Below, piece after piece: positions 6,001 through 61,936 of a stretch of 64,000 bases of DNA (its first letter is position 1; each line of letters starts with the position of its first letter). Both the position numbers and the translations under genes were made by a program. A model generated the notes under the pieces. It searched no databases, had not been told where the DNA came from, and saw nothing but the letters and a program-made list of their open reading frames with translations. Source of the DNA: Squalus acanthias (taxonomy: Eukaryota); NCBI GenBank assembly GCA_030390025.1, contig CM059431.1, positions 142,416,001 to 142,480,000 on the forward strand. The letters are read 5' to 3'.

Positions 6001-9000
6001 ACTGTTTTTAGCTATGGACATTCACTGTTACTATCTTTGGATCTTCGCAGTTTCTAGCTTTGGACCTCCACTCTTTCTAGCTTTGGACTTCCACTAATTC
6101 TAGCTTTGGACCACCACTGTTTCTAACTTTGGACCTTCACTGTTTCTAGCTTTGGACCTTCACTGTTTCTAGCTTTGTACCTTCACTGTTTCTAGCTATG
6201 GACCTCCACTGTTTCTAGCTTTGGACCTTCAATATTTCCAGCTTTGTAGCTCCACTGTTTCTAGCTTTGGAGCTCCACTGTTTCTAGCTTTGGACCTTCA
6301 CTGTTTCTAGCTTTGGACCTTCACTGTTTCTAGCTTTGTACCTTCACTGTTTCTAGCTTTGGACCTCCACTGTTTCTAGCTTTGGACCTTCACTATTTCC
6401 AGCTTTGTAGCTCCACTGTTTGTAGCTTTGGAGCTCCACTGTTTCTGGCTTTGGACCTCCACTGTTTCTAGCTTTGGTCCACCACAGTTTCTAGCTTTGG
6501 ATCTCCACTGTTTCTAGCTTTGGATCTCCACTGTTTCCAGCTTTGGAGCTCCTCTGTTTTTAGCTTTGGTCCACCACAGTTTCTAGCTTTGGATCTCCAC
6601 TGTTTCTAGCTTTGCATCTCCACTGTTTCTAGCTTTGTACCTTCACAGTTTCTAGCTTCGGACCTCCACTGTTTCTAGCTTTGGACCTTCTGTCTTTCTA
6701 GCTTTAGACCTCCACTGTTTCTAGCATTGGACCTTCACTGTTTCAAGCTTTGGATCTCTACTGTTTCTAGCTTTGGGCCTCCACTGTTTCTAGCTTTGTC
6801 CTTCACACTTTCTAGCTTTGGACCTTCACTGTTTCTACCTTTGGATCTCCTCTCTTTCTAGTTTTGGACCTTCACTCTTTCTTGCTTTGGAACTTCACTG
6901 TTTCTAGCTTTGGATCTTCAAAGTTTCTAGCTTTGAACCTCCACTGTTTCTAGCTTTGGACCTTCACTGTTTCTAGCTTTGGACCTTTACAGTTTCTAGC
7001 TTTGGAACTTCGCTGTTTCTAGCTTTGGACCACCACTGTTTCTTGCTTTGGACCTTCACTGTTTCTAAATTTGAACCTTCACTTTTTCTAGCTTTGGACC
7101 TTTACAGTTTCTAGCTTTGGACCTTCAAAGTTTCTAGCTTTGGACCATCACAGTTCTAGTTTTGGACCTCCACTCTTTCTAGCTTTGGACCTTCACAGTT
7201 TCTAGATTAGGACCTTCGCAGTTTCTAGCTTTGGACCTCCACTCTCTTCCAGCTTTGGCCTTTGCTGTTTTACCTTTGTACTTCACAGTTTCTAGCTTTG
7301 GAACTTCACTCTTTCTTGCTTTGGAACTTCACTGTTCTAGCTTTGGACCTTCACATTTTCTAGCTTTGGACCTCCACTGTTTCTAGCTTTCAACATTCAC
7401 TGTTTCTAGCTTTGGTCCTTCAGAGTTTCTAACTTTGAACCTCCACTGTTTCTGGCTTTGGACCTTCACAGTTTCTAGCTTTGGACCTTCACAGTTTCTA
7501 GCTTCGGACCTCCACTGTTTCTAGCTTTGGATCTCCACTGTTTCTAGCTTTGGACCTTCAGTCTTTCTCGCTTTGGACCTCCACTGTTTCTAGCATTGGA
7601 CCTTCACTGTTTCAAGCTTTGGATCTCCACTGTTTCTAGCTTTGGACCTTCAGTCTTTCTCGCTTTGGACCTCCACTGTTTCTAGCTTTGGACCACCACT
7701 GTTTCGAGCACTGGATCTCCATTTTTTCTATCATTGGACATTCACTCTTTCTAGCTTTGGATCTGCACTGTTTCTAGCTTTGTCCTTCACACTTTCTAGC
7801 TTTGGACCTTCACTGTTTCTACCTTTGGATCTCCACTGTTTCTTGCTTTGGATCTCCTCTCTTTCTAGTTTTGGACCTTCACTCTTTTTTGCTTTGGAAC
7901 TTCACTGTTTCTAGCTTTGGATCTTCAAAGTTTCTAGCTTTGAACCTCCACTGTTTCTAGCTTTGGACCTTCACAGTTTCTAGCTTTGTATCTCCACAGT
8001 TTCTAGCTTTGGACCTCCACTGTTTCTAGCTTTGGACCTTCACTGTTTCTAGCTTTGGATCTTTACAGTTTCTAGCTTTGGACCTCCACTGTTTCTAGCT
8101 TAGGACCTCCACTGTTTCTAGCTTTGGACCTTCATTGTTTCTAGCTTTGGAACTTCACTGTTTCTAGCTTTGGACCACCACTGTTTCTTGCTTTGGACCT
8201 TCACTCTTTCTAGATTTGGACCTTCACTTTTTCTAGCTTTGGACCTCCACTGTTTCTAGCTTTGGACCATCACAGGTTCTAGTTTTGGACCTCCACTGTT
8301 TCTAGCTTTGGACCTTCACTGTTTCTAGCTTTGGATCTCCACTGTTTCTAGCTTTGGACCTCCACTCTTTCTAGCTTTGGACCTTCACAGTTTCTAGATT
8401 TGGATCTCCACTGTTTCTAGCTTTGGACCTCCACTGTTTCTAGCTTTGGAACTCCTCTCTTTCTAGCTTTGGACTTTCACAGTTTCTAGCTTTGAACCTC
8501 CACTCTTTCTAGCTTTGGACCTTCACAGTTTCTAGTTGTGCATCTACACTGTTTCTAGCTTTGGATCTCCACTGTTTCTAGCTTTGGACCTTCACAGTTT
8601 CTGGGTTTGGACCTTCACAGTTTCTAGCTTTGAATCTCCACTGTTTCTAGCTTTGGATCTTCACAGTTTCTAGCTTTGGACCTTCACAGTTTCTAGCTTT
8701 GTACCTTCGCAGTTTCTAGCTTTAGAACTTCACAGTTTCAGCTTTGGACCTTCGCAGTTTCTAGCTTTGGACCTCCACTCTTTCCAGCTTTGGACCTTCA
8801 CTGTTTCTCGCTTTGGACCTTCACTCTTTCGAGCTTTGGAACTTCACAGTTTCTAGCTTTGGACCTTCACTCTTTGTAGCTTTGGACCTTCACAGTTTCT
8901 AGCTTTGGACCTTCACTCTTTCTAGCTTTGGACCTCCACTGTTTCTAGCTTTGGAACTTCACTCTTTCTAGCTTTGGACTTCCACTCTTTCTAGCTTTGG

Positions 9001-12000
9001 AACTTCACTGTTTCTAGCTTTGGACCTTCACATTTTCTAGCTTTGGACCTCCACTGTTTCTAGCTTTCAACCTTCACTGTTTCTAGCTTTGGTCGTTCAG
9101 ATTTTCTAACTTTGAACCTCCACTGTTTCTAGCTTTGGACCTTCACAGTTTCTAGCTTTGAACCTTCACAGTTTCTAGCTTTGGACCTCCACTGTTTCTA
9201 GCTTTGTTCCTCCACTGTTTTTAGCTATGGACATTCACTGTTACTATCTTTGGATCTTCGCAGTTTCTAGCTTTGGACCTCCACTCTTTCTAGCTTTGGA
9301 CTTCCACTAATTCTAGCTTTGGACCACCACTGTTTCTAGCTTTGGACCTTCACTGTTTCTAGCTTTGTACCTTCACTGTTTCTAGCTATGGACCTCCACT
9401 GTTTCTAGCTTTGGACCTTCAATATTTCCAGCTTTGTAGCTCCACTGTTTCTAGCTTTGGAGCTCCACTGTTTCTAGCTTTGGACCTTCACTGTTTCTAG
9501 CTTTGGACCTTCACTGTTTCTAGCTTTGTACCTTCACTGTTTCTAGCTTTGGACCTCCACTGTTTCTAGCTTTGGACATTCACTATTTCCAGCTTTGTAG
9601 CTCCACTGTTTCTAGCTTTGGAGCTCCACTGTTTCTGGCTTTGGACCTCCACTGTTTCTAGCTTTGGAGCTCCACTGTTTCTAGCTTTGGTCCACCACAG
9701 TTTCTAGCTTTGGATCTCCACTGTTTCTAGCTTTGGATCTCCACTGTTTCCAGCTTTGGAGCTCCTCTGTTTTTAGCTTTGGTCCACCACAGTTTCTAGC
9801 TTTGGATCTCCACTGTTTCTAGCTTTGCATCTCCACTGTTTCTAGCTTTGTACCTTCACAGTTTCTAGCTTCGGACCTCCACTGTTTCTAGCTTTGGACC
9901 TTCTGTCTTTCTAGCTTTCGACCTCCACTGTTTCTAGCATTGGACCTTCACTGTTTCAAGCTTTGGATCTCTACTGTTTCTAGCTTTGGGCCTCCACTGT
10001 TTCTAGCTTTGTCCTTCACACTTTCTAGCTTTGGACCTTCACTGTTTCTACCTTTGGATCTCCTCTCTTTCTAGTTTTGGACCTTCACTCTTTCTTGCTT
10101 TGGAACTTCACTGTTTCTAGCTTTGGATCTTCAAAGTTTCTAGCTTTGAACCTCCACTGTTTCTAGCTTTGGACCTTCACATTTTCTAGCTTTGGATCTC
10201 CACAGTTTCTAGCTTTGGACCTCCACTGTTTCTAGCTTTGGACCTTCACTGTTTCTAGCTTTGGACCTTTACAGTTTCTAGCTTTGGAACTTCGCTGTTT
10301 CTAGCTTTGGACCACCACTGTTTCTTGCTTTGGACCTTCACTGTTTCTAAATTTGAACCTTCACTTTTTCTAGCTTTGGACCTTTACAGTTTCTAGCTTT
10401 GGACCTTCAAAGTTTCTAGCTTTGGACCATCACAGTTTCTAGTTTTGGACCTCCACTCTTTCTAGCTTTGGACCTTCACAGTTTCTAGCTTTGTACCTTC
10501 GCAGTTTCTAGCTTTAGAACTTCACAGTTTCAGCTTTGGACCTTCGCAGTTTCTAGCTTTGGACCTCCACTCTTTCCAGCTTTGGACCTTCACTGTTTCT
10601 CGCTTTGGACCTTCACTCTTTCGAGCTTTGGAACTTCACAGTTTCTAGCTTTGGACCTTCACTCTTTGTAGCTTTGGACCTTCACAGTTTCTAGCTTTGG
10701 ACCTTCACTCTTTCTAGCTTTGGACCTCCACTGTTTCTAGCTTTGGAACTTCACTCTTTCTAGCTTTGGACTTCCACTCTTTCTAGCTTTGGAACTTCAC
10801 TGTTTCTAGCTTTGGACCTTCACATTTTCTAGCTTTGGACCTCCACTGTTTCTAGCTTTCAACCTTCACTGTTTCTAGCTTTGGTCGTTCAGATTTTCTA
10901 ACTTTGAACCTCCACTGTTTCTAGCTTTGGACCTTCACAGTTTCTAGCTTTGAACCTTCACAGTTTCTAGCTTTGGACCTCCACTGTTTCTAGCTTTGTT
11001 CCTCCACTGTTTTTAGCTATGGACATTCACTGTTACTATCTTTGGATCTTCGCAGTTTCTAGCTTTGGACCTCCACTCTTTCTAGCTTTGGACTTCCACT
11101 AATTCTAGCTTTGGACCACCACTGTTTCTAGCTTTGGACCTTCACTGTTTCTAGCTTTGGACCTTCACTGTTTCTAGCTTTGTACCTTCACTGTTTCTAG
11201 CTATGGACCTCCACTGTTTCTAGCTTTGGACCTTCAATATTTCCAGCTTTGTAGCTCCACTGTTTCTAGCTTTGGAGCTCCACTGTTTCTAGCTTTGGAC
11301 CTTCACTGTTTCTAGCTTTGGACCTTCACTGTTTCTAGCTTTGTACCTTCACTGTTTCTAGCTTTGGACCTCCACTGTTTCTAGCTTTGGACCTTCACTA
11401 TTTCCAGCTTTGTAGCTCCACTGTTTCTAGCTTTGGAGCTCCACTGTTTCTGGCTTTGGACCTCCACTGTTTCTAGCTTTGGAGCTCCACTGTTTCTAGC
11501 TTTGGTCCACCACAGTTTCTAGCTTTGGATCTCCAATGTTTCTAGCTTTGGATCTCCACTGTTTCCAGCTTTGGAGCTCCTCTGTTTTTAGCTTTGGTCC
11601 ACCACAGTTTCTAGCTTTGGATCTCCACTGTTTCTAGCTTTGCATCTCCACTGTTTCTAGCTTTGTACCTTCACAGTTTCTAGCTTCGGACCTCCACTGT
11701 TTCTAGCTTTGGACCTTCTGTCTTTCTAGCTTTAGACCTCCACTGTTTCTAGCATTGGACCTTCACTGTTTCAAGCTTTGGATCTCTACTGTTTCTAGCT
11801 TTGGGCCTCCACTGTTTCTAGCTTTGTCCTTCACACTTTCTAGCTTTGGACCTTCACTGTTTCTACCTTTGGATCTCCTCTCTTTCTAGTTTTGGACCTT
11901 CACTCTTTCTTGCTTTGGAACTTCACTGTTTCTAGCTTTGGATCTTCAAAGTTTCTAGCTTTGAACCTCCACTGTTTCTAGCTTTGGACCTTCACATTTT

Positions 12001-15000
12001 CTAGCTTTGGATCTCCACAGTTTCTAGCTTTGGACCTCCACTGTTTCTAGCTTTGGACCTTCACTGTTTCTAGCTTTGGACCTTTACAGTTTCTAGCTTT
12101 GGAACTTCGCTGTTTCTAGCTTTGGACCACCACTGTTTCTTGCTTTGGACCTTCACTGTTTCTAAATTTGAACCTTCACTTTTTCTAGCTTTGGACCTTT
12201 ACAGTTTCTAGCTTTGGACCTTCAAAGTTTCTAGCTTTGGACCATCACAGTTTCTAGTTTTGGACCTCCACTCTTTCTAGCTTTGGACCTTCACAGTTTC
12301 TAGATTAGGACCTTCGCAGTTTCTAGCTTTGGACCTCCACTCTTTCCAGCTTTGGACCTTTGCTGTTTCTACCTTTGTAACTTCACAGTTTCTAGCTTTG
12401 GAACTTCACTCTTTCTTGCTTTGGAACTTCACTGTTTCTAGCTTTGGACCTTCACATTTTCTAGCTTTGGACCTCCACTGTTTCTAGCTTTCAACATTCA
12501 CTGTTTCTAGCTTTGGTCCTTCAGACTTTCTAACTTTGAACCTCCACTGTTTCTGGCTTTGGACCTTCACAGTTTCTAGCTTTGGACCTTCACAGTTTCT
12601 AGCTTTGGAGCTCCACTGTTTCTAGCTTTGGTCCACCACAATTTCGAGCTTTGGATCTCCACTGTTTCTAGCTTTGGATCTCCACTTTTTCTAGCTTTGT
12701 ACCTTCACAGTTTCTAGCTTCGGACCTCCACTGTTTCTAGCTTTGGATCTCCACTGTTTCTAGCTTTGGACCTTCAGTCTTTCTCGCTTTGGACCTCCAC
12801 TGTTTCTAGCATTGGACCTTCACTGTTTCAAGCTTTGGATCTCCACTGTTTCTAGCTTTGGACCTTCAGTCTTTCTCGCTTTGGACCTCCACTGTTTCTA
12901 GCTTTGGACCACCACTGTTTCGAGCACTGGATCTCCATTTTTTCTATCATTGGACATTCACTCTTTCTAGCTTTGGATCTGCACTGTTTCTAGCTTTGTC
13001 CTTCACATTTTCTAGCTTTGGACCTTCACTGTTTCTACCTTTGGATCTCCACTGTTTCTTGCTTTGGATCTCCTCTCTTTCTAGTTTTGGACCTTCACTC
13101 TTTTTTGCTTTGGAACTTCACTGTTTCTAGCTTTGGATCTTCAAAGTTTCTAGCTTTGAACCTCCACTGTTTCTAGCTTTGGACCTTCACAGTTTCTAGC
13201 TTTGTATCTCCACAGTTTCTAGCTTTGGACCTCCACTGTTTCTAGCTTTGGACCTTCACTGTTTCTAGCTTTGGATCTTTACAGTTTCTAGCTTTGGACC
13301 TCCACTGTTTCTAGCTTAGGACCTCCACTGTTTCTAGCTTTGGACCTTCATTGTTTCTAGCTTTGGAACTTCACTGTTTCTAGCTTTGGACCACCACTGT
13401 TTCTTGCTTTGGACCTTCACTCTTTCTAGATTTGGACCTTCACTTTTTCTAGCTTTGGACCTCCACTGTTTCTAGCTTTGGACCATCACAGGTTCTAGTT
13501 TTGGACCTCCACTGTTTCTAGCTTTCAACCTTCACTGTTTCTAGCTTTGGTCGTTCAGATTTTCTAACTTTGAACCTCCACTGTTTCTAGCTTTGGACCT
13601 TCACAGTTTCTAGCTTTGAACCTTCACAGTTTCTAGCTTTGGACCTCCACTGTTTCTAGCTTTGTTCCTCCACTGTTTTTAGCTATGGACATTCACTGTT
13701 ACTATCTTTGGATCTTCGCAGTTTCTAGCTTTGGACCTCCACTCTTTCTAGCTTTGGACTTCCACTAATTCTAGCTTTGGACCACCACTGTTTCTAGCTT
13801 TGGACCTTCACTGTTTCTAGCTTTGGACCTTCACTGTTTCTAGCTTTGTACCTTCACTGTTTCTAGCTATGGACCTCCACTGTTTCTAGCTTTGGACCTT
13901 CAATATTTCCAGCTTTGTAGCTCCACTGTTTCTAGCTTTGGAGCTCCACTGTTTCTAGCTTTGGACCTTCACTGTTTCTAGCTTTGGACCTTCACTGTTT
14001 CTAGCTTTGTACCTTCACTGTTTCTAGCTTTGGACCTCCACTGTTTCTAGCTTTGGACCTTCACTATTTCCAGCTTTGTAGCTCCACTGTTTCTAGCTTT
14101 GGAGCTCCACTGTTTCTGGCTTTGGACCTCCACTGTTTCTAGCTTTGGAGCTCCACTGTTTCTAGCTTTGGTCCACCACAGTTTCTAGCTTTGGATCTCC
14201 ACTGTTTCTAGCTTTGGATCTCCACTGTTTCCAGCTTTGGAGCTCCTCTGTTTTTAGCTTTGGTCCACCACAGTTTCTAGCTTTGGATCTCCACTGTTTC
14301 TAGCTTTGCATCTCCACTGTTTCTAGCTTTGTACCTTCACAGTTTCTAGCTTCGGACCTCCACTGTTTCTAGCTTTGGACCTTCTGTCTTTCTAGCTTTA
14401 GACCTCCACTGTTTCTAGCATTGGACCTTCACTGTTTCAAGCTTTGGATCTCTACTGTTTCTAGATTTGGGCCTCCACTGTTTCTAGCTTTGTCCTTCAC
14501 ACTTTCTAGCTTTGGACCTTCACTGTTTCTACCTTTGGATCTCCTCTCTTTCTAGTTTTGGACCTTCACTCTTTCTTGCTTTGGAACTTCACTGTTTCTA
14601 GCTTTGGATCTTCAAAGTTTCTAGCTTTGAACCTCCACTGTTTCTAGCTTTGGACCTTCACATTTTCTAGCTTTGGATCTCCACAGTTTCTAGCTTTGGA
14701 CCTCCACTGTTTCTAGCTTTGGACCTTCACTGTTTCTAGCTTTGGAGCTCCACTCTTTCTTGCTTTGGAACTTCACTGTTTCTAGCTTTGGACCTTCACA
14801 TTTTCTAGCTTTGGACCTCCACTGTTTCTAGCTTTGGACCATCACAGGTTCTAGTTTTGGACCTCCACTGTTTCTAGCTTTGGACCTTCACTGTTTCTAG
14901 CTTTGGATCTCCACTGTTTCTAGCTTTGGACCTCCACTCTTTCTAGCTTTGGACCTTCACAGTTTCTAGATTTGGACCTTCGCAGTTTCTAGCTTTGGAC

Positions 15001-15338
15001 CGCCACTCTTTCCAGCTTTGGACCTTCGCTGTTTCTAGCTTTGGAACTTCACAGTTTCTAGCTTTGGACCTTCACTCTTTCTAGCTTTGGAACTTCACAG
15101 TTTCTAGCTTTGGACCTTCACTCTTTCTAGCTTTGGACCTTCTTTGTTTCTAGCTTTGGACCTTCACTGTTTCTTGCTTTGGACCTCCACTTTTTCTCGC
15201 TTTGGTTAGTCACGTTTTCTTGCTATGGACCTCTATTGTTGCTAGCTTTGCACCTCCAGTGTTTTTAGCATTGGACCTCCACTGTGTTTAGCATTGGTAC
15301 ACCACTCTTTCTAACTTTGGACATCCACTGTTTCTACC
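1..15338. repeat. 23-bp tandem satellite array (consensus GTTTCTAGCTTTGGACCTYCACT), runs off the left edge
   Basis: TTTCTAG recurs every 23 nt (e.g. 121, 144). The + strand is pyrimidine-rich. Units degenerate over ~15130-15338. ORFs 3809, 7642 and 12858 are translations of the repeat. Confidence 0.98.
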
Positions 15339-15480: not shown

Positions 15481-16413
15481 ATGGTGTTCCTAATGACGTA
15501 CTACAAATGTTAATTTGCTTGTGTTACCCTTTTGCTGATATATATATTACTCGGATATTTAAGCCGCAACATTTCTGACTATTGGCATTACCCAGAGTTA
15601 AATGACGGCTCCTTCTTAATGCGACCAGACAGCAGGTGTGACGTCGGTCCCCCATTCCTGGTCCTTCTTGTCACCAGTGCCCAGGACCAGTTCGAAGCTC
15701 GCTCGGCCATTCGCCAGACCTGGGGCAGAGAGCGGACATCACATGGCAAGAGGGTAGTGACCTACTTCCTGCTCGGGTACAGCCGGGAGCATCAGAAGCA
15801 TCTGCTAGAGGAAGGTTTACTGCACAAAGACATCATACAGAAAGAGTTCAGCGACACTTATTTCAACCTGACCACCAAGGTGCTGATGGGCCTCGAATGG
15901 GTGAGCCGATTTTGTCCATCCGCCTCCTTTGTGATGAAAACCGATTCAGACATGTTTGTCAACGCTGATTATCTGAGAAAGCTCCTCCTGTCACGAACCA
16001 CTCGCAGGAATATCTTCTCCGGCTACATACAGAGAAATGCAAGACCCAACAGGGACAAATCCAGTAAATGGTAGGTGAGTGAACAGGAATACCGTCTGGA
16101 AACGTATCCGCCATTCTGCTCTGGCACTGGGTACCTGCTGACGACCGATGTCGCTTTCCGAGTTTGGAGCGTTTCGAATACCGTCCCCAGATTGAAACTC
16201 GAGGACGTTTTCGTCGCTCTCTGCGTGGCTAAGTTGAAGATAGCGCCGGTGGAAATCCACTCGCGGCAAGCATTCTACAATTCAAAGGTCCCGTTTTCTA
16301 TTTGCGACTTTCGGAAACTCGTGACCTCTCACGGGGTGAAACCCTGCGAGATGCTGAGCTACTGGAAAGCACTGACTGATGCGGCAACTGAGGACTGCCC
16401 TGGAGATACGTGA
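15481..16413 (+). pseudogene. B3GALT5: Beta-1,3-galactosyltransferase 5-like (GT31) coding exon with two in-frame stops
   Basis: ATG 15481 is in frame with ORFs 15532-16074 and 16075-16413, giving 310 codons. Motifs PPFLVLLVTS, AIRQTWG, FVMKTDSDMFVN, YPPFCSGTGY, LEDVFV and the C-terminal EDCP are present. Stops are TAA 15511-15513 and TAG 16072-16074. A splice acceptor tttcttttgttttacAG ends at 15445. Confidence 0.88.
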
Positions 16414-18141: not shown

Positions 18142-21100
18142 CATAGCCATAGTCATAGAGACATAGATTTATACAGCACAGAAAGAGGCCCTTCGGCCCA
18201 TCGTGTCCGCGCCGGCCATCAAGCCCTATCTATTCTAATCCCATTTTCCAGCACTTGGTTCGTAGCCTTGTATGCTATGGCGTTTCAAGTGCTCATCTAA
18301 ATGCTTCTTGAATGTTGTGATGGTTCCTGCCTCTACCACCCTTTTAGGCAGTGAGGTCCAGATTCCAACCACCCTCTGGGTGAAAAAGTATTTCCTCAAT
18401 TCCCCTCTAAAGCTCCTGCCCCTTACCTTGAATCTATGCCCCCTGGTTATTGACCACTCTAGTAATGGGAAAAGTTCATTTCTATCTAAACTATCTATGC
18501 CCCCCATAATTTTGTACACCACAATCAGGTCCCCCCTAAGCCTTCTCTTCTCTAAGGAAAACAACCCCAGCATGTCCAGTCTCTCTTCAAAGCTGAAGCG
18601 CTCCAGCCCAGGTAACATCCTACTGAATTTCCGCTGCATCCTCTCCAATGCAATCAGATCCTTCCTATAGTGTGGCGACCAGAACTGCACACAGTATTCT
18701 AGCTGTGGCCTAACTAGCGTTTGGTACAGCTCCATCATAAACTCCCTGCTCTTATATTCTATGACTCGGTTAATGAAGCCAAGTATCCCCTATGCCTTTT
18801 TAACCATCTTATCTACCTGTCCCGGTGCCTTCAGGGATCTATATACATGCACACCAAGGTCCCTTTGATCCTCTGTCCTTCCTTTGGTCCTAACATTAAT
18901 TGTGTATTCCCTTGCCTTGTTAGTCCTCCTAAAATGCATCACCTCACACTTTTCAAGGTTAAATTGCATTTGCCACTGTTCTGCCCGTCTGACCAAACCG
19001 TTTATCTCGTCCTGTAGCCTGAGGCTTCCCTCCTCGCTATTTACCACCCCACCAATTTTCGTGTCATCTGCGAACTTACTGATCATACCTCCTACATTCA
19101 TATCTAAATCATGAATATACACTACAAACAACAAAGGACCCAGCAGCGATCCCTGCGGTACACCACTGGACACAGGCTTCCAGTCACAAAAACAACCTTC
19201 GACCATCACTCTCTGACTCCTGCCACTAAGCCAATTTTGGATCCAATGTGCCAAATTGCCCTGAATAACATGGGCTCTTACCTTCTTGACCAGTCTCCCA
19301 TGCGGGACTTTGTCAAAAGCCTTACTGGAGTCCATGTAGACTACATCAACTGCACTACCCTCATCCACAAAGCTAGTCACCCCATCGAAACATTCAATCA
19401 AATTGGTAAGACATGATCTCCCCCTGACAAAACCATGCTGACTATCCTTAATTAATCCTTGCCTCTCCAAGTGGAGACAAATTCTGTCCCTCAGAATTTT
19501 TTCCAATAACTTCCCTACCACTGATATCAGGCTCACTGGCCTGTAATTCCCTGGTTTATCCCTACTACCTTACTTGAATAATGGTACTATGTTAGATATC
19601 CTCCAGTCATCTGGCACCTCCCCTGTGGCCAGAAAGGTTCTGAAAATTTGTGTCAGAGCCCTGCAATCTCCTCCCAAGCCACACACAGCAGCCTGGGATA
19701 CATCTCGTCTGGGCCTGGGGATTTATCCACTTTTAAGCCTGCTAAAAGTGCAAGTGCCCCCTCCCTCTGAATAATAATTTGTTCAAGTATATCACAATCC
19801 CCCTGCCTGATTTCTATGGCTACATCGTCCCTCTTCATAGTGAACACAGATGCAAAATATTCAGTTAAAACCTCACCCACATCTTCCGGCTCTACACACA
19901 GATTGCCACTTGGGTCCCTAATGGGCCCTACTCTTTCCCTGGTTATCCTCTTGCCCTTAATATACTTATAAAACACCTTGGGATTTTCCTTTATTTTGCC
20001 CACCAGTGTTATTTCATGCCCCCTTTTCGCTCTCCTAATTTATTTTTTAAGTAACCCCCTGCACTTTCTATATTCCTCTAGGGTTTCCACTGTTTTCAGT
20101 CGTTTGTATCTGCCAAAAGCTTCCCTTTTATTCCTAATTCATTCTTATATAACCCTTGACGTCCAGGGTTCCCTGGGCCTGTTGGTCCCACCCTTGACCT
20201 TTACGGGAACATGTTGGCGTTGTGCTCTCTCTATTTCCTTTCCGAAAGACGCCCACTGCTCTGATGTGGATTTTCTTACACGTAGCTGATCCCAATCCAC
20301 TTTAGCCAGATCCTGCCTTATCATATTAAAATCGTCCTTCCCCCAATTTAGAAACTTTATTTCCGGTCCATCTTTGTCCTATTCCATGACTACCTTGAAT
20401 CTAACCGAATTATGGTCACTGTTACCAAAATGCTCTCCAACTGACACTTCTACCACTTGCCCGGCTACATTCCCTAGAATTAGATCAAGTACCGACCCCT
20501 CTCTTGTACGACTTTCTACGTGCTGGCTCAAAAAGCACTCCGGGATGCTCTTTAAGAATTCTGCACCCTCTAAGCCTTTCACATTCTGACTATCCCAGTT
20601 AATATTGGGGAAGTTCAAATCCCCTACTATTATTACCCAAATATTTCTACACTTCTCTGAGATTTGCCTATATATCTGTTCCTCTATCTCCCCCTGACTG
20701 TTTGGGGGCCTATAGTACACTCCCAGCAAAGTGCTTGCCCCCTTTTTGTTTTAAGGTTCTACCCATATGGCCTCATTAGAGGAACCTGCTGAGATATCAT
20801 CCCTCCTTACAGCAGTAATTGACTCCTTGATTAATATTGCTACACCCCCTCCTCTTTTACACCCCCCTCTGTCTCGCCTGAAGATTCCATACACCGGAAT
20901 ATTGAGCTGCCAGTCCTGCCTATCCCTCAACCACGTCTCTGTGATAGCAACATTATCATTCTCCCATGTGTTCATCAACATCTTCAATTCATCTGCCTTA
21001 CTCGCAAGACTCCTTGCATTAAAATAAATGCCATCCAGCCTTGCCATACTCCCTTGTGCCGTTACATTTTTGCTCTGCCTTCCAGGCTGACTTGTTTTTT

Positions 21101-22026
21101 CCTCTACATTTGGCTGTGCATCACCCCCGACTGTATCTCCACTCCGTATCCCATCCCCCTGCCAAGTTAGTTTAACAGCCCCCCCCCAAAAAAAAACAGT
21201 ACTAGCAAACCTTCCCGCAAGGATGTTGATCCTGTTCCGGTTCAGGTGCAACCCTTCCGATTTGTACAGGTCCCATCTTCCCCAGAAGAAGACCCAGTGA
21301 TCCAGGAAACTAAAGCCTCCCTCCTGCACCAACTCTTTAGCCACGCATTCATCTGCTCTATCCTCCTATTCCTATACTCACTAGCACGTGGCACCGGGAG
21401 TAATCCAAGAATATAACCTTTGAGGTCCTGCTTTTTAATGTGCTACCTAGCTCCCTTAATTCTTTTTGTAGGACCTCATCCCTCTGTCTACCCATGTCGT
21501 TGGTACCAATGTGAACCACGACCTCTAAATGTTCGCCCTCCCCCTTCGGAATGTCCTGCAGCCGTTCAGTGACATCCTTGACCCTGGCACCAAGGAAGCA
21601 ACATGCCATCCGGGAGTCACGTCTGCGGTCACAGAAACGTCTATCTGTTCCCCTTACTATAGAATCCCCTATCACTATTGCTCTCCCACTCTTGTTCCTC
21701 CCCTCCTGTGCAGCTGAGCCACTCGTAGTGCCACGGTCTTGGCTCTTGCTGCATTCTCCTGAGAAACCATCTCCCCCATCAGTATCCAAAATGGAAAATC
21801 TGTCGGAGAGGGAGATGGACCCAGGTGACTCCTGCACTACTTTCCTAGTTCATTTACTCTGCCTGGCGGTCACCCATTCCCTGTCAGCCTGTGCACTCTT
21901 TACCTGCGATGTGACCACCTCGTTAAACCTGCTATCCACAAAGATCTCAGCTTCGTGGATGCTCCACAGTGACTCCAGCCGCAGCTCCAGCTCCGAAACG
22001 CGGATTTCGAGTAGCTGCAGCTGGCT
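18142..22026 (-). mobile_element. Near full-length, frameshifted CR1-clade LINE (SGNH-esterase ORF1, APE endonuclease, RT)
   Basis: ORF 21358-21837 has GDSIVR/GTND. ORFs 20751-21344 and 20379-20729 have NARS, ITETW, YRPP, GDLN and SDH. ORF 18790-19536 has QHGF, GVPQGS and KFADD. ORF 18235-18738 is the C-terminus. A short-repeat tail lies at 18142-18170. Confidence 0.93.
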
Positions 22027-26558: not shown

Positions 26559-26812
26559 TTAAACACACACTCCCTCCATCACTGGTGCACCGTTTCTGTA
26601 ATGGGTATTAACTACAAGATGAACTGCAGCAACTCGCCAAGGCTTCTTGGACAGCATCTCCCGAACCGGCAATCACTGCCAGCGAGTAGGACAAGGGCAG
26701 CAGACGCGTGGGAGCGGCCAGCTTCCAATTCAAGTCACACACCATCCTGACTGGAACATATAATACCGTTCCTTCATCGTCACTGGGTCCAAATCCTGGA
26801 AATCCCTACCTA
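26559..26812 (+). mobile_element. 3' part of a second LINE family, split by the young CR1; resumes at ~30275-30410
   Basis: The sequence aaatcctggaaatccctaccta continues after the insert as acactgagggagtac...ggactgcagcggttcaag...gggcaataaatgctggcc. It appears to be the same family as the minus-strand element at 31510-33770. Confidence 0.6.
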
Positions 26813-27219
26813 TGTGCAAGGGTCAAGGATGTCTCGGCGCGGGTGCAGAACATTCTGGAGGGGGAGGGGGAACAGCCAGTTGTCGTGATACATGTTGGTA
26901 CCAACGACGTAGCTAAAAAAAGGGAAGAGGTCCTACAAGTAGAATTTAGGGAGTTAGGAGCCAAGCTAAAAAGTAGGACCTCGAAGGTAGTAATCTCTGG
27001 ATTACTACCAGTGCCACGTGCTAGTAAGAGTACAGAGAACAGGATAGTTAGGCTAAATACGTGGCTTGAGCAGTGGTGTAAGAGGGAGGGTTTTAAATTT
27101 TTGAGGCATTGGGACCAGTTTTGTGGTAGGTGTGACCTATACAAAAGGGACGGTCGACACCTGTGCAAAGATGGAACTGATGTTCTCGGGGTAAATTTTG
27201 ATAAAGCAGTTCGGGAGCA

Positions 27220-27229
27220 TTTAAACTAG
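27220..27229 (+). promoter_or_regulatory. Candidate -1 ribosomal frameshift heptamer T_TTA_AAC immediately before the ORF1 stop
   Basis: ORF1 reads CAT TTA AAC TAG. The -1 frame reads TTT AAA CTA GTA TGG CAG GGG, which is the ORF2 frame. Confidence 0.6.
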
Positions 27230-30171
27230 TATGGCAGGGGGCTAGAAACCCATGTAGTGAAATAGAGGAAAGTGAAAGGCAGACAGAAATAAATGGTAAA
27301 AAGGAGAGGAACAAAAAACAAAGGGCCAAACTAATTCATAAAAAATGTGAGCATAAAAAAAGCCTGAGGGTTTTATACCTTAATGCGAGAAGCATCAGGA
27401 ACAAGGTAGATGAATTAGCTGTGGAAATAGAGGTTAATAATTATGATCTAATTGGGATTACGGAAACATGGTTGCAGGGTGAGCAGGGCTGGGAGCTTAA
27501 CATACAGGGGTATTCAGTATTTAGGAAGGATCGACAAAAAAGAAAGGGAGGAGGGGTAGCATTGCTGGTAAAAGAGGGGATAAATGCAATTGAAAGGAAG
27601 GATATTAACTCAGTTAATACAGAATCTATATGGGTGGAGCTAAGAAATAGCGAGGGGCGAAAAACATTAATAGGAGTGGTATATAGGCCTCCAAATAGTA
27701 AAATAGAGGTTGGGGAGGGCATCACGAGGGAAATTAGAGAAGCGTGCAATAAGAGCACAGCTGTCATCATAGGTGACTTTAACTTACATATAGATTGGAC
27801 TAGCCTAATCAGTAAAAATAATGAGGAGGAGGAATTCCTTGAGTGTTTAAGGGATGGTTATCTGGATCAATATGTCGAGGAACCAACTCGGGAACAGGCT
27901 ATATTGGACTGGGTACTGTGCAATGAGAAGGGACTAATTAGTAATCTTGTTGTACGGGGACCCTTGGGTCAGAGCGATCATAACATGATCGATTTCTCAC
28001 TCGAAATGGAGAGCGAAGAAATTGACTCAGAGACTCAGGTCCTGAATTTAAACAAGGGGAATTATGATGCCATTAGACGGGAACTGAGTAGGTCTGATTG
28101 GACAACGTTCCTGGGAGGACTGGAGGTAGATAAACAATGGCAAGCATTTAAAGATAGAATGACAAAATTGCAAAAATTGTTTATACCAATCTGGCATAAA
28201 AGGAAATCTAAAAAGGTGACTCAACCGTGGATAACAGGGGAAATTAGAGACAGCATAAAATCCAAAGATAGGGCGTATAAAATAGCCAAAAAACGCGCCA
28301 GAGCGGAAGATTGGGAACAGTTTAAGATAGAGCAAAGGAGGGCAAAGGGCTTAATCAAGAAGGGCAAAATAGCTTACGAAAGCAAGCTGGCGGAAAATAT
28401 AAAAACTAACTCCAAAAGCTTTTATAAGTATATCAAGAGGAAAAGACTGGTGAAAACCAAAGTTGGTCCATTGCAGTCAGATACGGGGGAATATATAATG
28501 GGAAATAAGGAAATGGCAGACCAACTAAATGCATACTTTGGGTCAGTCTTTACGAAGGAAGACACAAAAAACCTCCCTGGGATATCGGGAAAAATAGGGA
28601 CATTGGCAAAGGAGGAACTGACGCAAATCAATATCTCTAAGGATATGGTGTTAAGGAAGCTAAAGGGATTGAAGGCGGACAAATCCCCAGGGCCTGATAA
28701 CATGCATCCTAGGGTACTGAAGGAGGTGGCCCGAGAGATAGCGGATGCACTAAGCATGATTTTTCAGAATTCATTAGACTCGGGAACAGTGCCCATGGAT
28801 TGGAGGGTAGCTAACGTTACCCCACTATTCAAAAAGGGGGGTAGGGAAAAAGCAGGTAATTACAGACCTGTAAGCCTTACATCAGTTGTGGGCAAAATGC
28901 TGGAGTCCATCATTAAGGATGAAATAGCCGAGCACTTAGCAAATGGGGACAGGATAGGACAGAGTCAACATGGATTTACAAAGGGTAAATCGTGCTTGAC
29001 TAATCTATTGGAATTTTTTGAGGGAGTAACTGGTAAAATAGATGGGGGAGAGCCAGTAGATGTGGTGTACCTGGACTTCCAAAAGGCCTTCGATAAGGTC
29101 CCACATAAAAGATTAGCATGGAAAATTGAAGCTCATGGGATAAAGGGGAAAGTATTGACGTGGATAGAGAACTGGCTGTCAGATAGAAAACAGAGAGTTG
29201 GAATAAACGGCTCATTTTCTGAATGGCAGGCAGTAACAAGTGGGGTACCACAGGGATCTGTCCTGGGTCCCCAGCTGTTCACAATTTATATTAATGACCT
29301 GGATCAGGGAGTCGAATGCAGCATTTCCAAATTTGCAGACGACACTAAACTAGGAGGGGGGGTGGGCTCAGAGGAGGAGACCAGGAAGCTCCAGAGCGAT
29401 TTGGACAGACTGGGTGATTGGGCGGATAAATGGCAGATGCACTATAATGTGGACAAGTGCGAAGTTATCCACCTTGGGTGCAGGAACGGGAGGGCAAATT
29501 ATTATTTAAATGGCAATAAATTGGGAGAGGGGGAAGTACAGAGAGACCTGGGTGTTCTTGTACACCAGTCACTGAAGGCGAGCATGCAGGTGCAACAGGC
29601 GGTCAAGAAGGCAAACGGTATGCTGGCCTTCATAGCAAAAGGGTTGGAATACAGGAACAGGGATACCTTGCTGCAGCTGTACAGGGCACTGGTGAGACCA
29701 CACCTCGAGTACTGTGTACAGTTTTGGTCGCCTCATCTGAGGAAAGATGTTCTTGCCATGGAGGGGGTGCAGCGGCGATTCACCAGGCTGATACCAGGAA
29801 TGGCGGGATTGACCTATGAGGAGAGACTATGTAGTTTAGGGATGTACACACTGGAGTTTAGAAGATTGAGAGGGGACCTCATAGAAGTGTATAAAATTCT
29901 GACAGGTCTAGACAGATTAGATGCAGAAGGAATGTTTCCCTTGGCGGGTGAGAACAGAACTAGAGGACATAATTTAAGGATAAGGGCTAAACCATTTAGG
30001 ACAGAAATGAGGGGGAATTTCTTCACTCAGAGAGTGGTGAACCTGTGGAACTCATTGCCACAGAGGGCAGTGTACGCCAGCTCATTAAATATATTTAAGA
30101 GGGAATTAGATATATTTCTACAGGCAAAAGGGGTTAAGGGTTACGGAGAGAAGGCGGGGACGGGATACTGA
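27220..30171 (+). CDS. CR1 ORF2 endonuclease/reverse transcriptase
   Basis: The frame is open from 27205 to 30171. It includes LYLNARS upstream of the track's GTG start at 27421, then ITETW, YRPP, GDFN, SDHN, QHGF, GVPQGS and KFADD. There is no in-frame ATG before the endonuclease domain. Confidence 0.9.
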   Translation, partial: FKLVWQGARNPCSEIEESERQTEINGKKERNKKQRAKLIHKKCEHKKSLRVLYLNARSIRNKVDELAVEIEVNNYDLIGITETWLQGEQGWELNIQGYSVFRKDRQKRKGGGVALLVKEGINAIERKDINSVNTESIWVELRNSEGRKTLIGVVYRPPNSKIEVGEGITREIREACNKSTAVIIGDFNLHIDWTSLISKNNEEEEFLECLRDGYLDQYVEEPTREQAILDWVLCNEKGLISNLVVRGPLGQSDHNMIDFSLEMESEEIDSETQVLNLNKGNYDAIRRELSRSDWTTFLGGLEVDKQWQAFKDRMTKLQKLFIPIWHKRKSKKVTQPWITGEIRDSIKSKDRAYKIAKKRARAEDWEQFKIEQRRAKGLIKKGKIAYESKLAENIKTNSKSFYKYIKRKRLVKTKVGPLQSDTGEYIMGNKEMADQLNAYFGSVFTKEDTKNLPGISGKIGTLAKEELTQINISKDMVLRKLKGLKADKSPGPDNMHPRVLKEVAREIADALSMIFQNSLDSGTVPMDWRVANVTPLFKKGGREKAGNYRPVSLTSVVGKMLESIIKDEIAEHLANGDRIGQSQHGFTKGKSCLTNLLEFFEGVTGKIDGGEPVDVVYLDFQKAFDKVPHKRLAWKIEAHGIKGKVLTWIENWLSDRKQRVGINGSFSEWQAVTSGVPQGSVLGPQLFTIYINDLDQGVECSISKFADDTKLGGGVGSEEETRKLQSDLDRLGDWADKWQMHYNVDKCEVIHLGCRNGRANYYLNGNKLGEGEVQRDLGVLVHQSLKASMQVQQAVKKANGMLAFIAKGLEYRNRDTLLQLYRALVRPHLEYCVQFWSPHLRKDVLAMEGVQRRFTRLIPGMAGLTYEERLCSLGMYTLEFRRLRGDLIEVYKILTGLDRLDAEGMFPLAGENRTRGHNLRIRAKPFRTEMRGNFFTQRVVNLWNSLPQRAVYASSLNIFKRELDIFLQAKGVKGYGEKAGTGY

Positions 30172-30732
30172 ATTGAAGGATCAGCCATGATCTCATTAAA
30201 TGGCGGAGCAGGCTCGAAGGGCCGGATGGCCTACTCCTGCTCCTATCTTCTATGTATCTATGTATCTATGTATCAACACTGAGGGAGTACGTTTACCATA
30301 TGGACTGCAGCGGTTCAAGATGACAGCTCACTGCACCTTCTTAAGGGCAACTAGCTTTGGGCAATAAATGCTGGCCTTGTCAGCGAAGCCCGTATCCGAA
30401 GAATTAATTCAAAAATCGTTGCAAATTTTCCTATTTATACCCAGGTTACTTCATTGCAAACAAGAGATAGAAGTTCATTGATTTATTTTAGCAATCGCAA
30501 ATTTGAAATTTGAGCTGATCCTTGCCTTGTCCTGATCCCTGTGGAGTTGATTATTTAACTAGAGAATAGTGGAACTCTGGGAAAGGCGGCCGAGTCGTGC
30601 GATGAACGCCTTCTCGCTGAATTAGGGAGAATAATCCCACATTATTCTCCCCAAGGTGTCCTGGGTTTCAATTTGGTTTTTCGCGTCTCACAAGAGCTCC
30701 CGTGGTTTTGGATAGGGTGGAGAGAGAATATA

Positions 30733-37470: not shown

Positions 37471-38659
37471 TGATTTCACCTCTATTATTGTTCCAATGGC
37501 CCAACCCATTGATAGCCCTGTTGATCCCTTCACATTGCCTCTGACGCCCCTTCCTGATACATTGAATAGACTGGGTTTGGAACACAGTGCAGCTTGTGAT
37601 ATCTTCATCCAAGCACCATCACATCAAACTGCCTTCCACTGCCAAAGCAAGAGCGAGACACACTGCCTGATATTATGCGAGGGAGAATTTGGGGTGTATA
37701 AATCAAAACGTGAACATTGAATAATGGGTCTTCGTATTTGGAGGATGGGAGGGAAATGATTAAGGGGCAATTTTGCGAGGCTGTGCTCCTTGGTTAACGA
37801 GGTTGGAGTACTTGGGAACGAGGTCGGAGACAGGACTGAATGTACAGCATGTGTTTATTCCCAGTGAGACTGCACACCAGGAGCAGAGCATGGTCATGTG
37901 ACCCTGTGACACATCGACTGGGCGGAGATCCGGCTATTTTGTGACATTGTTGCCGGCTGCTGTATGATTGGCTCCTGGCTCCTTTGTGATGTCACCTGGA
38001 GACAGGTTTCCGCCCATGGTTACGCTCCATCAGTGGTGTGTTACTGTGGGCGGAGCTAGAGTTGGTAGCAGATATTGTGAGTGAGTATAACCCCGATAAT
38101 TAGGGACAAGGAAAAAAAAGAACAATTTAATATTAAATAAATAATTCAACCAAATGTCATTAATTGTAAATATATTCAAATTAAATGTATTCGCAGTCGC
38201 AATGTTACTCAAATTGTATTCCGATCACAGTTTATGGAATTAATATTAATAATGTTTATATTGATAGTTTCTTGGAGTCAGCAGAATCTCAGGAGTGTGG
38301 CGAGAGAGAGAGAAGTCGAATCATCACAATATTACCTGGGACAGGACAAACGTCATTGGGTTCACAGAACAGAACTGGAGATATCATGGACCTCAGCTTG
38401 AAACACCGGTTAAAACAGGAAACTACAGCAATGATTGGAAGGATGGGGAACTTTCATGAGAATCCAATCAGTCCAGGATTTTGCCGAGGTGAGAGTCGAA
38501 CTTGGCATCAGCAGCTGTTCAACATTTGCTAAAAAGGCTCGGCCTTTGATGCGGCAAATTTGCCTGGGGATTGACTGGTGTGCGAAACTTTTCCATACCT
38601 CACCTGGGAGCGCCTAGGAATTACATATACATGGAATTTTATCCTGTGACTGTACCGTG

Positions 38660-49656: not shown

Positions 49657-51242
49657 TAGCCCGCTTCTACCTCCTTCCCAAGATCCACAAACAGGACCGC
49701 CCCGGTAGACCCATCGTTTCAGCCTGTTCTTGCCCCACGGAACTTATCTCTTCCTATCTCGACTCTATTTTTTCTCCCCTTGTCCAGTCTCTTCCCACCT
49801 ACATCCGCGACTCTTCCGATGCCCTCCGCCATTTTAACAGTTTCCAGTTTCCCGGCCCCAACCGTCTCCTCTTCACTATGGACGTACAATCCCTCTACAC
49901 CTCCATTCCCCACCAGGATGGCCTGAGGGCGCTCCGCTTCTTCCTTGAACAGAGGCCCAACCAGTCCCCATCCACCACCACCCTCCTCCGCCTGGCTGAA
50001 CTTGTTCTCACATTGAACAACTTCTCCTTTGACTCTACCCATTTCCTCCAAATTAAAGGTGTTGCTATGGGTACCCGCATGGGTCCTAGCTATGCCTGCC
50101 TTTTCGTGGGATATGTGGAACACTCTTTGTTCCAGTCCTACTCGGGTCCCCTCCCTCACCTCTTTTTCCGGTACATTGATGACTGTATCGGTGCCGTCTC
50201 CTGCTCTCGCCCTGAACTAGAACATTTCATTCACTATGCTTCCAATTTCCACCCTTCCCTCACCTTCACATGGTCCATCTCCGACTCTTCCCTTCCCTTC
50301 CTCGACTTCTCCATCTCCATCTCTGGGGATAGGTTATTGACTAACATTCACTACAAGCCCACTGACTCCCACAGCTACCTGTACTACACTTCCTCCCACC
50401 CCGCCTCCTGTAAGGACTCTATTCCATTCTCCCAGTTTCTCCGTCTCCGCCGCATCTGCTCTGATGATGCCACCTTCCATACCAGTGCTTCCGACATGGC
50501 TTCCTTTTTCCTCAACCGAGGATTCCCCTCTACCGTGGTCGACGCGGCCATCGACCGTGTCCGTTCTATCTCCCGCACTTCTGCCCTCACCCCTGCCCCT
50601 CCCTCCCAGAACCACGATAGGGTTCCCCTTGTCCTCACCTTTCACTCCACCAGCCTTCACATTCAACGGATCATCCTCCGCCATTTCCGCCACCTCCAGC
50701 GTGATCCCACCACCAAACACATCTTTCCCTCACCTCCCCTTTCAGCATTCCGCAGGGACCGCTCCCTCCGCGACACCCTAGTCCACTCCTCTACCACCCC
50801 CAGCACCCCTTCCCCTTCGCCCGGCACCTTCCCGTGCACGCGCAGGAGATGCAACACATGCCCTTACACCTCCCCTCTTCCCACTGTCCAGGGCCCCAAA
50901 CACCCCTTCCAGGTGAAACAGCGATTTACTTGTACTTCCTGCAATTTAGTATACTGTATTCGCTGCTCACGATGTGGTCTCCTCTACATTGGGGAGACCA
51001 AACGCTGATTGGGTGACCGCTTTGCGGAACACCTCCGTTCAGTCCGTAAGGGGGACCCCGAGCTCCCGGTGGCCTGTCACTTTAATTCACCGCTTCACTC
51101 CCACTCTGACCTCACCGTCCTCGGCCTATCACACTGTTCCACGGAAGCGCAGCGTAAGCTCGAGGAACAGCACCTCATCTTTCGTTTAGGCACGCTACAG
51201 CCCTCTGGACTCAATATCGAGTTCAACAATTTTAGATCATAA
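49657..51242 (+). pseudogene. Penelope RT + GIY-YIG ORF, N-truncated, one in-frame stop
   Basis: FYLLPKIHK, GRPIVS, MDVQSLYT, GVAMG, RYIDD, FLD and NLVYCIRC..YIGETKR motifs. TGA at 51006-51008 is followed by an in-frame continuation to 51242. Confidence 0.92.
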
Positions 51243-51834: not shown

Positions 51835-53160
51835 ACATTGAATAAGATATTTAATGGTCTGAAACCAGACTTTAAAATATTTACAGTCTTGGATACAGAA
51901 CGGGTTCTGGCCCATACCATTGGCAGAGGAATCACAAGGGAAATTCGCCTTTACTGTCAGGGATAGACAGGATACATGGACGAGGGTCCCGCAGGAGTTC
52001 CACAATAGTCCAAATATATTCCACCAGGTACTGAGTCAAGCCTTAGACGAGTTAGACCTATCAAAGTATCAGAGTGCCCTACTCCAATATGTCGATGACA
52101 TAATGAATGCATCAGAGGATGCCAAAAGACACATGGGAGCATTACTAGCCACCCTCCAGACACTTAAGAAAGCTGGCTTTAAATTGAACCCAAAAAGGCA
52201 CAGGTTGGACTGTCCAAAGTAAAGTATCTAGGACACGAAATTAACCAGGGGTATAAGGCACTCCTGCAGGAACAAAAGGCAGCCATAAAAGACATGCCAA
52301 GGCCAGTGACCGACCGGGGAGTGAGGAAAGTGTTGGGACTATTTAACTACTGCAGGAATTTTATATCAGACTTTGCAGGGAAAGCAGAGCCGATTCAACG
52401 GTTAGTTAAAGGGGGAAGAAATATTGCCTGGTAATAATTGACCAATTTACCAGATGGGTGAAAACATTTGCCACCCGAGACTGCTCAGCAAGGACAGTAG
52501 GACAAATACTGGCCAGTGAAGTAATACCCAGACGGGGAGTCCCACTCCAAATTGACTCTGATAATGGTACGCATTTAAAAAAAAATAATGAAGGAAACTT
52601 GTAAGCTGTTAAATGTAACACAAAAATACCACATACCATATCATCCCCAGAGCTCGGGGATGGTAGAAAGAATGAATAGGACACTGAAAAACACGCTGAC
52701 AAAAGCCATCCAAGAAACAGGGAAGGGATGGTTGGAATTACTACCCAGCATATTAATGAGGCTGCGAGCCACGCCAGGATGCACGACCGGACTGACCCCT
52801 TATGAATTAATGACAGGACGAGTTATGAGACTGCCAGAGGATCTGGCTGGAGGGTTGGGAGAACCAGGACCAGTACAAGATAGATTAAGACAATATTTAG
52901 TACAACTAAACCAGGAGGTACCAGCACTAAATACAGAAGTAATGAACCAGCAACAGATTAAAGATCTGGAGAGACAAAATACTGGACTTAAACCAGAGGA
53001 GTTGCCCAAAATTGGCCAACAGGTAATGACGCAAGTTATTAGAAGAAAGGGAAAGGAACCTCGGTGGATGGGGTCATATACTGTATTAATGACAATTGAT
53101 ACATGTGTTTGTCTACAGGAACCTCCGTTTGCCCACAGGAAGAAAACAAATTGGATGTAA
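51835..53160 (+). pseudogene. pol: Retroviral pol remnant: RT core fused by deletion to integrase core
   Basis: FTVLD..NGFW, FAFT, PQEFHNSP and QYVDD, then at ~52415 directly YCLVIIDQFTRWV, DSDNG, YHPQSSGMVERMNRTLK and GLTPYELMTGR. Several frameshifts. Confidence 0.9.
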
Positions 53161-61370: not shown

Positions 61371-61930
61371 GCAAAGCGACGATGTTTGGAAAATATTGCC
61401 AGTTAGGAGCGGGAAAATTGAAAGGATCCAAAAAATAAAATACAGTCATCAGCTTTGTGAATCTTTAGATCCGCTTTGGGAAAGGGAATCAGAGGAGAAT
61501 GAAGGACGAACCGCCCGATTGACCAGAGGCGGTTAAGACACCGCTCCCTGGTTTCAGACGCTGGAACATTTTCTCGGATGTTATCGGTGACATCAACTGC
61601 TCTGTGTCATTTAAAGGATTCTCGTTACTGCAGATCAGGAAATCAAACGCAACATTGGGTTCGGGACATTCAGAGTAATTCCGAACAAACAAGGCACCTA
61701 AAGGCTGGGAGGGAGAGGGCACCGGTTGCAGGAGAGCTGGTTCGCGGTGACATGGGTGTGTCTGCAGTGTGCGGGACCAGACATTCTCTGTGTGTTCACA
61801 ATGAATGTCCCATTCCTTAATTTGGAAATGTAAAACTGATCGTGGGCAATTGCTATTCCGGTCGCAGAAATCTGAAATTTTATCTCGCTGACACCCTCGG
61901 TTAGGGAATCTTGCTACAGCACATCCGACC

Positions 61931-61936
61931 GTCTCT

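Follow-up and report, generated by a model that had tools for sequence, protein, structure and literature searches.

The stretch of DNA analysed here (the window) covers 64,000 nucleotides (nt) of Squalus acanthias (assembly GCA_030390025.1, contig CM059431.1, positions 142,416,001 to 142,480,000 of the forward strand), and all coordinates given below are those of the window. It contains a copy of CR1, a long interspersed nuclear element (LINE), whose two open reading frames (ORF1 and ORF2) meet at a short junction. We have analysed this junction, both in the copy itself and in related elements, and consider it a real feature, which makes this CR1 a LINE with a strongly supported predicted -1 frameshift site. 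The features of the locus are collected in Table 1.

Table 1. CR1 features of the window discussed in the text.
Feature	Position	Strand	Basis or remark
CR1 LINE copy, 5'-truncated within ORF1	26814..30271	+	99.8% identity over 3,460 nt to full-length copy L242
ORF1, 3' part, SGNH/GDSL esterase domain, ends H-L-N-stop	26816..27229	+	Pfam Lipase_GDSL_2, E 3e-9
ORF2 frame, 988 amino acids (aa) stop to stop, -1 to ORF1	27205..30171	+	linker, APE endonuclease, reverse transcriptase
Slippery heptamer T_TTA_AAC in ORF1 phase	27220..27226	+	39/39 distinct copies of this family
ORF1 stop adjoining the heptamer, here TAG	27227..27229	+	TAA, TAG or TGA in other lineages
G box (G5), candidate stimulator, 10 nt past the heptamer	27237..27241	+	G at offsets +10/+11 in 32/32 representatives
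APE endonuclease in ORF2	about 27382-27981	+	Pfam Exo_endo_phos (query 27205-30168)
Reverse transcriptase in ORF2	about 28840-29472	+	Pfam RVT_1 (query 27205-30168)
3' untranslated region, hairpin-like region and 8-nt tail repeats	30172..30274	+	sequence
Second CR1 copy, older, decayed, other lineage	18151..22024	-	73% identity in ORF1; broken frames
Junction of second copy: G_TTA_AAC, TAA, 7 nt, G5-AT-G3	21150..21176	-	T_TTA_AAC in the majority of its lineage

The element has the attributes of an esterase-type CR1, namely an ORF2 encoding an APE endonuclease followed by a reverse transcriptase (RT), an SGNH esterase in ORF1, a short 3' untranslated region (UTR) with 8-nt tandem repeats and frequent 5' truncation. 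The same parts make up the vertebrate CR1 elements of chicken, shark and reptile, and bird relatives were found; the closest named relatives of ORF1 belong to sharks and rays, with homologs also in alligator and duck. The present copy, which begins at about 26814, has neither the 5' UTR nor the start of ORF1 and so is unable to make a fusion protein itself; full-length copies with 99.8% identity exist. In full-length related loci, ORF1 encodes 315 aa with an N-terminal cysteine cluster. When the junction region was compared with the 3.7 Gb genome, all 40 scored matches (742 candidates) were near-identical, and the junction was common to all 30 loci fetched from the genome. Judging from its sequences, the family is very young, abundant and very active, its youth following from the near-identity of the scored matches. 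The insertion has split an older repeat, whose halves lie at 26559-26807 and from 30275; no clear target-site duplication is seen.

ORF1 of this copy ends in the codons CAT (27218-27220), TTA (27221-27223), AAC (27224-27226) and TAG (27227-27229), which places the heptamer in X_XXY_YYZ phase. This is how the preliminary description of the window had read the junction, and all of its coordinates check out on reading. It had also stated that ORF2 is intact in the -1 frame from 27205, with no ATG ahead of the endonuclease, and this too was borne out. Indeed, the frame opens 15 nt (five codons) before the heptamer, and, counting from there, its first methionine is reached at codon 256 (27985), past the SDH motif at codon 252; with a start at this methionine the endonuclease would therefore be lost. 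An ATG at 27231 was considered as the start of ORF2 and rejected: it lies in the +1 frame, which is open for just four codons, and it is not conserved. Since ORF2 is -1 to ORF1, the copy does not have the in-frame arrangement expected for readthrough of the ZfL2-1 type.

The minus-strand copy had been described as sharing this junction in the form G_TTA_AAC_TAA. The sequence is present at 21176-21167, but its G is a minority variant in a decayed copy: among 47 distinct copies of that lineage, the base before TTA is T in 39, G in 7 and A in 1. Two trans-frame peptides had also been proposed for the ORF1-ORF2 product. The form containing H-L-N-L-V is the product of a tandem slip, whereas under the standard model the form containing F-K cannot arise, because that codon would be decoded as leucine before the slip.

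The conservation of the junction was assessed in a blind sample of 80 evenly spaced 10 kb stretches of the genome (800 kb). To locate junctions, we used the ORF1 protein without the C-terminal 12 residues as an anchor, and then read the 7 nt that precede the first ORF1 stop in frame. In all 12 junctions of the blind sample these 7 nt were TTTAAAC, a word whose background frequency in the sample is 1.3e-4 per site. Among 172 copies searched, 153 have their stop 11-15 codons past the anchor; 135 of these carry TTTAAAC, 7 a single-base variant of it and 11 are out of frame. The 19 copies with a stop elsewhere belong nearly all to one lineage with an unstable G run ahead of the site. In the lineage comprising L031-L045 and L163-L192, an unstable G run lies just 5' of the heptamer, and changes in its length often dephase ORF1 in single copies. 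Metagenome loci that break off after the match were set aside; of the 18 readable ones, 11 have a stop in range (7 TTTAAAC, 1 GTTAAAC and 3 of the in-frame-UGA type), while the remaining 7 comprise 2 with heptamer and stop behind an upstream break, 1 with the heptamer and no stop, and 4 with no heptamer.

Of 240 anchored loci, 231 fell into 33 clusters by linker sequence, and 32 representatives were retained after the truncated cluster L162 was dropped. Of the representatives, 22 come from this genome, 7 are bird-like, 2 reptile-like and 1 echinoderm-like (host types as deduced from the loci), and the same junction is kept in all three of the latter groups. The nine anchored loci lacking a junction match are outgroup or unrelated elements (seven), a bird-like locus that has lost its stop and a shark locus with a changed stop. 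Although the linkers from heptamer to endonuclease are about 90 to 250 nt long and have little sequence in common, leucine is encoded by TTA and asparagine by AAC in 32/32 representatives. Furthermore, the base before TTA is T in 30/32, although the residue to which it belongs is H, A, G, D, S, T, C, V or L. By comparison, the dominant codon in 39 other conserved columns of ORF1 has a mean share of 0.61 and a highest share of 0.88, none reaching 0.94. The heptamer columns of this 32-row table are partly circular, because the junction pattern was used to place the site; the counts of 12/12 and 135/153 are not. Overall, the site displays two properties expected of a frameshift site, an in-phase X_XXY_YYZ heptamer and conservation at synonymous positions. 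A heptamer or phase that varied across families had been named as evidence to the contrary; both are conserved across families and distant hosts, and the frameshift reading survived this check.

Going upstream from the heptamer, the -1 frame meets a stop within 5 codons in 25 of the 32 representatives, and within one codon in 6; the heptamer is therefore the sole entry from ORF1 into ORF2. Among the 23 representatives that open into the endonuclease, 9 lack a methionine ahead of it; in the remaining 14 a methionine occurs at codon 5 (in four bird-like lineages), 8, 17, 17, 20, 20, 23, 26, 29, 44 or 45. We fail to detect in these 23 a conserved ORF2 start codon or a conserved AUG near the ORF1 stop. 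Such a codon had likewise been set down in advance as an argument against frameshifting; instead, methionines are scattered or missing before the endonuclease. In summary, ORF2 lies in the -1 frame, overlaps ORF1 at the site alone and has no conserved start of its own, as is typical of a frameshift site.

A second conserved element lies on the 3' side of the stop. Counting offsets from the first stop base as 0, G is present at +10 and +11 in 32/32 representatives, at +12 and +13 in 30, at +14 in 28, at +17 in 28 and at +18 in 27, and offsets +3 to +9 are free to vary. Most lineages carry G5-N2-G3, the second G run being lost in the family of the present copy. Offset +10 is the third codon base under Q, G, K, S, R, E or W, and the constraint on this wobble position under seven residues therefore acts on the RNA. 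This G box lies at the distance of the mRNA entry channel and is a candidate for a function in frameshifting.

The 3' stem formerly suggested as the stimulator (TATGG with CCATG) did not hold up: its z is 0.02 against shuffled sequences, and it is not conserved. A local hairpin or pseudoknot was rejected as well, with folding at the level of shuffled sequences and no Rfam match, and a folded stimulator of the coronavirus type, 5-9 nt downstream, is not seen, pseudoknots being judged just by the missing conserved partner of the G run. Long-range partners for the G box were looked for in the 3' UTR and in a C-rich stretch of ORF1 lying ~640 nt upstream; the best ones differ among 14 elements, and such pairing was discarded. 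Nor was a conserved partner found in ORF2, the 3' UTR or upstream. Finally, the G4Hunter score is at least 1.2 in 25/32 representatives but 0.6 in the present family; a quadruplex therefore cannot explain everything and was dropped as a universal stimulator, being kept as a possible helper only. We infer that the G box corresponds most closely to a linear or quadruplex signal.

The ends of ORF1 proteins extend these observations to more distant elements. ORF1 ends in L-N in 30 of 32 scorable top matches, of which the named ones are from sharks and rays, and in 4/4 amniote proteins, but in 0/38 teleost-dominated distant proteins; among echinoderm-like ORF1s, 8/16 end in L-N and the other 8/16 in S-N. 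Distant tails were collected from the best 150 matches of a profile search over 50%-identity representatives; 90 of these end 22-45 residues past the last esterase motif, giving 74 distinct tails. They include 34 L-N, 9 G-N, 2 S-N, 1 K-N and 2 other x-N ends. The residue before L-N is able to end in T in 33/34 cases (background share unable to do so 18%, p 0.01), and G-N is preceded by Q in 8 cases and by S in the ninth. One F-L-N and one S-K-N protein fall within the G-N clade of the tree. At the protein level, these tails would match the heptamers U_UUA_AAC, G_GGA_AAC and A_AAA_AAC, which are listed among the most shift-prone ones in the excerpts of PMC5009743 used here. We treat this pattern as a lead, because the proteins are related. 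Two ORF1 tails of the G-N clade, P0268 and P0281, end in F-F-R and could hide a U-run slippery site.

Other esterase LINEs show a different junction. In three outgroup elements (L084:2608, L110:1326 and L117:1149), a single in-frame UGA separates ORF1 from the endonuclease, and the frame is open into the latter; the UGA is followed by CUG, CUA or AUA. UGA-CUA is a readthrough context described in the consulted part of PMC13517186, and we regard the UGAs of these fish and invertebrate-like elements as candidate readthrough sites, readthrough being the second known route to a fusion of this kind. Because they too would give a fusion, an ORF1-ORF2 fusion looks like a common design. In a tree of endonucleases, with no named CR1 reference included, the frameshift-type rows stand apart from the long-branched UGA-type rows, the chimeric row L018 being misplaced. 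No CR1 relatives were found in viral contigs, where three pattern matches proved not CR1-like on inspection, and a scan of prokaryotes returned two unrelated loci only. One CR1 ORF1 of shark/ray type (P0013) carries the NCBI label of an SGNH hydrolase from Pseudomonas aeruginosa; it lies on a 4.2 kb contig and is probably host contamination.

Taken together, these sequence comparisons make it very probable, in our judgement, that CR1 ORF2 is made by programmed -1 frameshifting, as an esterase-endonuclease-RT fusion of ~1,296 aa. This is likely because an in-phase heptamer, a stop and a fixed G box are combined with an ORF2 in the -1 frame that has no conserved start. Most ribosomes would stop at the ORF1 codon and release the ORF1 protein (315 aa). 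In a minority, tRNA-Leu on UUA and tRNA-Asn on AAC would re-pair on UUU and AAA; the slipped ribosomes would read CUA next and continue to a product of about 1,296 aa (315 + 981), as in Gag and Gag-Pol. More tentatively, the G box near the mRNA entry channel may stimulate the slip as an unfolded linear signal, through a bound protein or contact with rRNA. Where a lineage is richer in G tracts, a two-tier G-quadruplex might help, and the slip could be further enhanced by slow termination at the neighbouring stop.

Several observations weigh against this proposal. The 32 lineages are related to each other, and several of the clusters are close. No folded stimulator emerged from the 32 representatives (mean z 0.02, 1/32 below -2, empty consensus fold), and a heptamer without a stimulator usually shifts weakly. 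With respect to long-range covariation, cognate pairs were no better than swapped ones in 26 lineages (permutation p 0.85), and the present family, very active as it is, has the weakest G box, with three GG tracts. Among the proteins, the S-N ends of half of the echinoderm-like ORF1s do not fit X_XXY_YYZ, 26 of the 74 distant tails do not end in N, and a search for DNA behind the G-N and K-N proteins found none, the G-N proteins forming one clade. Finally, a missing AUG is not decisive alone, because reinitiation in L1 and in caliciviruses can proceed after the AUG has been lost (PMC5009743 and PMC5972666, in the parts consulted).

This last point bears on termination-reinitiation, in which ribosomes would stop at the ORF1 codon and restart nearby on an AUG or non-AUG codon, the conserved bases acting as a ribosome-holding signal. 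Such reinitiation is the described route for L1 and SART1 (consulted part of PMC5972666), and its tolerance of start-codon changes, the fixed distance from stop to G box and the failure to find a folded frameshift stimulator would all suit it. So would the in-frame AUG two codons past the stop (codon 5) in 4 of the 7 bird-like loci, which also speaks against frameshifting. However, codon 5 is TGG, TGT, AGT and others in most lineages, and reinitiation leaves unexplained the fixed TTA and AAC codons and the preceding T, the constant -1 position of ORF2 and the joint switching of distant tails among L-N, G-N and K-N. We therefore regard it as unlikely.

Even less credit is due to joining at the RNA level, by splicing or by polymerase slippage at the T3-A3 run, which would frame ORF2 with ORF1 or with an upstream AUG. 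Some lineages do carry a CTAA resembling a branch point, with AG/G a few bases further along, but offset +9 is A in just 18/32, a pyrimidine tract is missing and three-base runs are short for slippage. Neither a splice joint nor an indel was listed at the junction in two raw RNA runs at a threshold of 3 reads, although with a depth of about 70 and 100 reads at the heptamer rare products could escape. These reads represent both strands and depart from the window at several fixed sites, so that they may not be genuine transcripts of the element; they therefore limit RNA-level joining rather than eliminate it. It is also most improbable that something other than decoding preserves the motif, such as a protein constraint on the end of ORF1 or the start of ORF2, or a binding site in RNA or DNA, with ORF2 made by internal initiation. 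The CR1 sense strand commonly has G-rich purine tracts and L-N is nearly invariant in the protein alignment, as this explanation would have it; yet synonymous fixation occurs at this site only, outgroup esterase ORF1s lack L-N, and the phase and the adjoining stop are always kept.

Frameshifting at this site would have clear parallels among viruses. The heptamer is that of the coronavirus infectious bronchitis virus (U_UUA_AAC), and the phase and the placement of a polymerase in the -1 frame after an abundant protein are shared with it and with retroviral Gag-Pol, as far as the sources used here describe them. In contrast to the coronavirus type, CR1 has no pseudoknot or stem-loop at 5-9 nt, and has instead the G box at 10 nt and the adjoining stop. 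The portion of PMC5009743 that we consulted places folded stimulators at 5-9 nt and the protein-linked signals of arteriviruses and cardioviruses at 11-14 nt, and gives Semliki Forest virus a linear signal for which rRNA pairing is suggested. CR1 resembles the arterivirus (nsp1-beta/PCBP), cardiovirus and Semliki Forest virus systems, as portrayed there, in having an unfolded 3' motif at longer spacing. In contrast to theirs, its motif is rich in G and lies at 10 nt (7-9 where the G run continues in the 5' direction). Quadruplexes are stated to promote frameshifting in synthetic constructs, no natural example having been known in 2016 (same portion of PMC5009743).

Among non-long terminal repeat (non-LTR) elements, mammalian L1 and silkworm SART1 share with CR1 a bicistronic RNA and a low-level ORF2 after ORF1. 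Their ORF2 begins with an AUG, placed behind a 63-nt spacer or in a UAAUG overlap, whereas CR1 has neither and carries a slippery site instead. For ORF2 of zebrafish ZfL2-1 (L2 clade), Kajikawa in 2012 reportedly proposed stop-codon suppression, which would also give a fusion. ZfL2-1 has an esterase ORF1 like CR1 (PMC3905857 and PMC4176376, in part); this type, together with the outgroup elements, would use in-frame readthrough with no heptamer and no L-N end, whereas CR1 would use a -1 shift. Drosophila HeT-A is a non-LTR element with a stated gag frameshift (PMC5009743, part consulted), but unlike CR1 it has no RT. The consulted part of PMC5006619 on Dictyostelium TRE5-A holds nothing on frameshifting.

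The literature searched contains no statement of frameshifting for CR1, the original chicken and turtle CR1 descriptions lying outside it, so that an earlier mention is possible; nor did it yield a translation mechanism for CR1 ORF2. In the parts covered, the chicken genome report gives CR1 two ORFs and no ORF2 mechanism (PMC11835228), another paper reports 2A peptides in some CR1 elements and no frameshift (PMC3708506), and a third describes AUG-independent initiation of L1 ORF2 with no mention of CR1 (PMC5009743).

A broader scheme, to which we give somewhat less than an even chance, is that esterase LINEs across animals make a Gag-Pol-like fusion by recoding. CR1 would do so through a -1 shift on the interchangeable heptamers U_UUA_AAC, G_GGA_AAC and A_AAA_AAC, driven by an unfolded or quadruplex G box, a type of stimulator with no known natural example, and sister branches would do so through UGA readthrough. 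The two routes would mirror the two retroviral strategies.

The window holds several other repeats and gene-like sequences. A satellite array of about 667 copies of a 23-nt unit occupies positions 1-15336 and is adjoined by a beta-1,3-galactosyltransferase-like frame (15514-16413, plus strand; Pfam Galactosyl_T), which has an in-frame stop at 16072-16074 and is probably a pseudogene copy. Frames resembling RT and GIY-YIG proteins, with a weak RVT_1 match, lie at 49593-51008 (plus strand), 43701-44807 (minus strand) and 38618-38959 (minus strand); we take them to be probable Penelope-type elements. Broken retroviral-like RT and integrase fragments are found at 51863-53160 on the plus strand (RVT_1, rve_3, MLVIN_C). 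The three tRNA-like sequences at 42147-42221 (unassigned), 47035-47108 (Trp) and 61930-62005 (Asn) are either genes or heads of short interspersed nuclear elements. Finally, a tandem array with a 30-nt unit, in at least 34 copies, extends over 62969-64000.

The translation of the second gene is known for few LINEs, and in those it proceeds by reinitiation. In birds, reptiles and cartilaginous fishes, the principal LINE is CR1. If the frameshift interpretation is true, the CR1 enzyme would be a fusion carrying the ORF1 esterase, and the annotation of CR1 ORF2 would change. It would also affect how an active CR1 is built for a retrotransposition assay, and the view of how ORF1 and RT meet on the RNA. 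The junction would then be a very old and very abundant frameshift site of cellular genomes, with an unusual G-rich 3' element.

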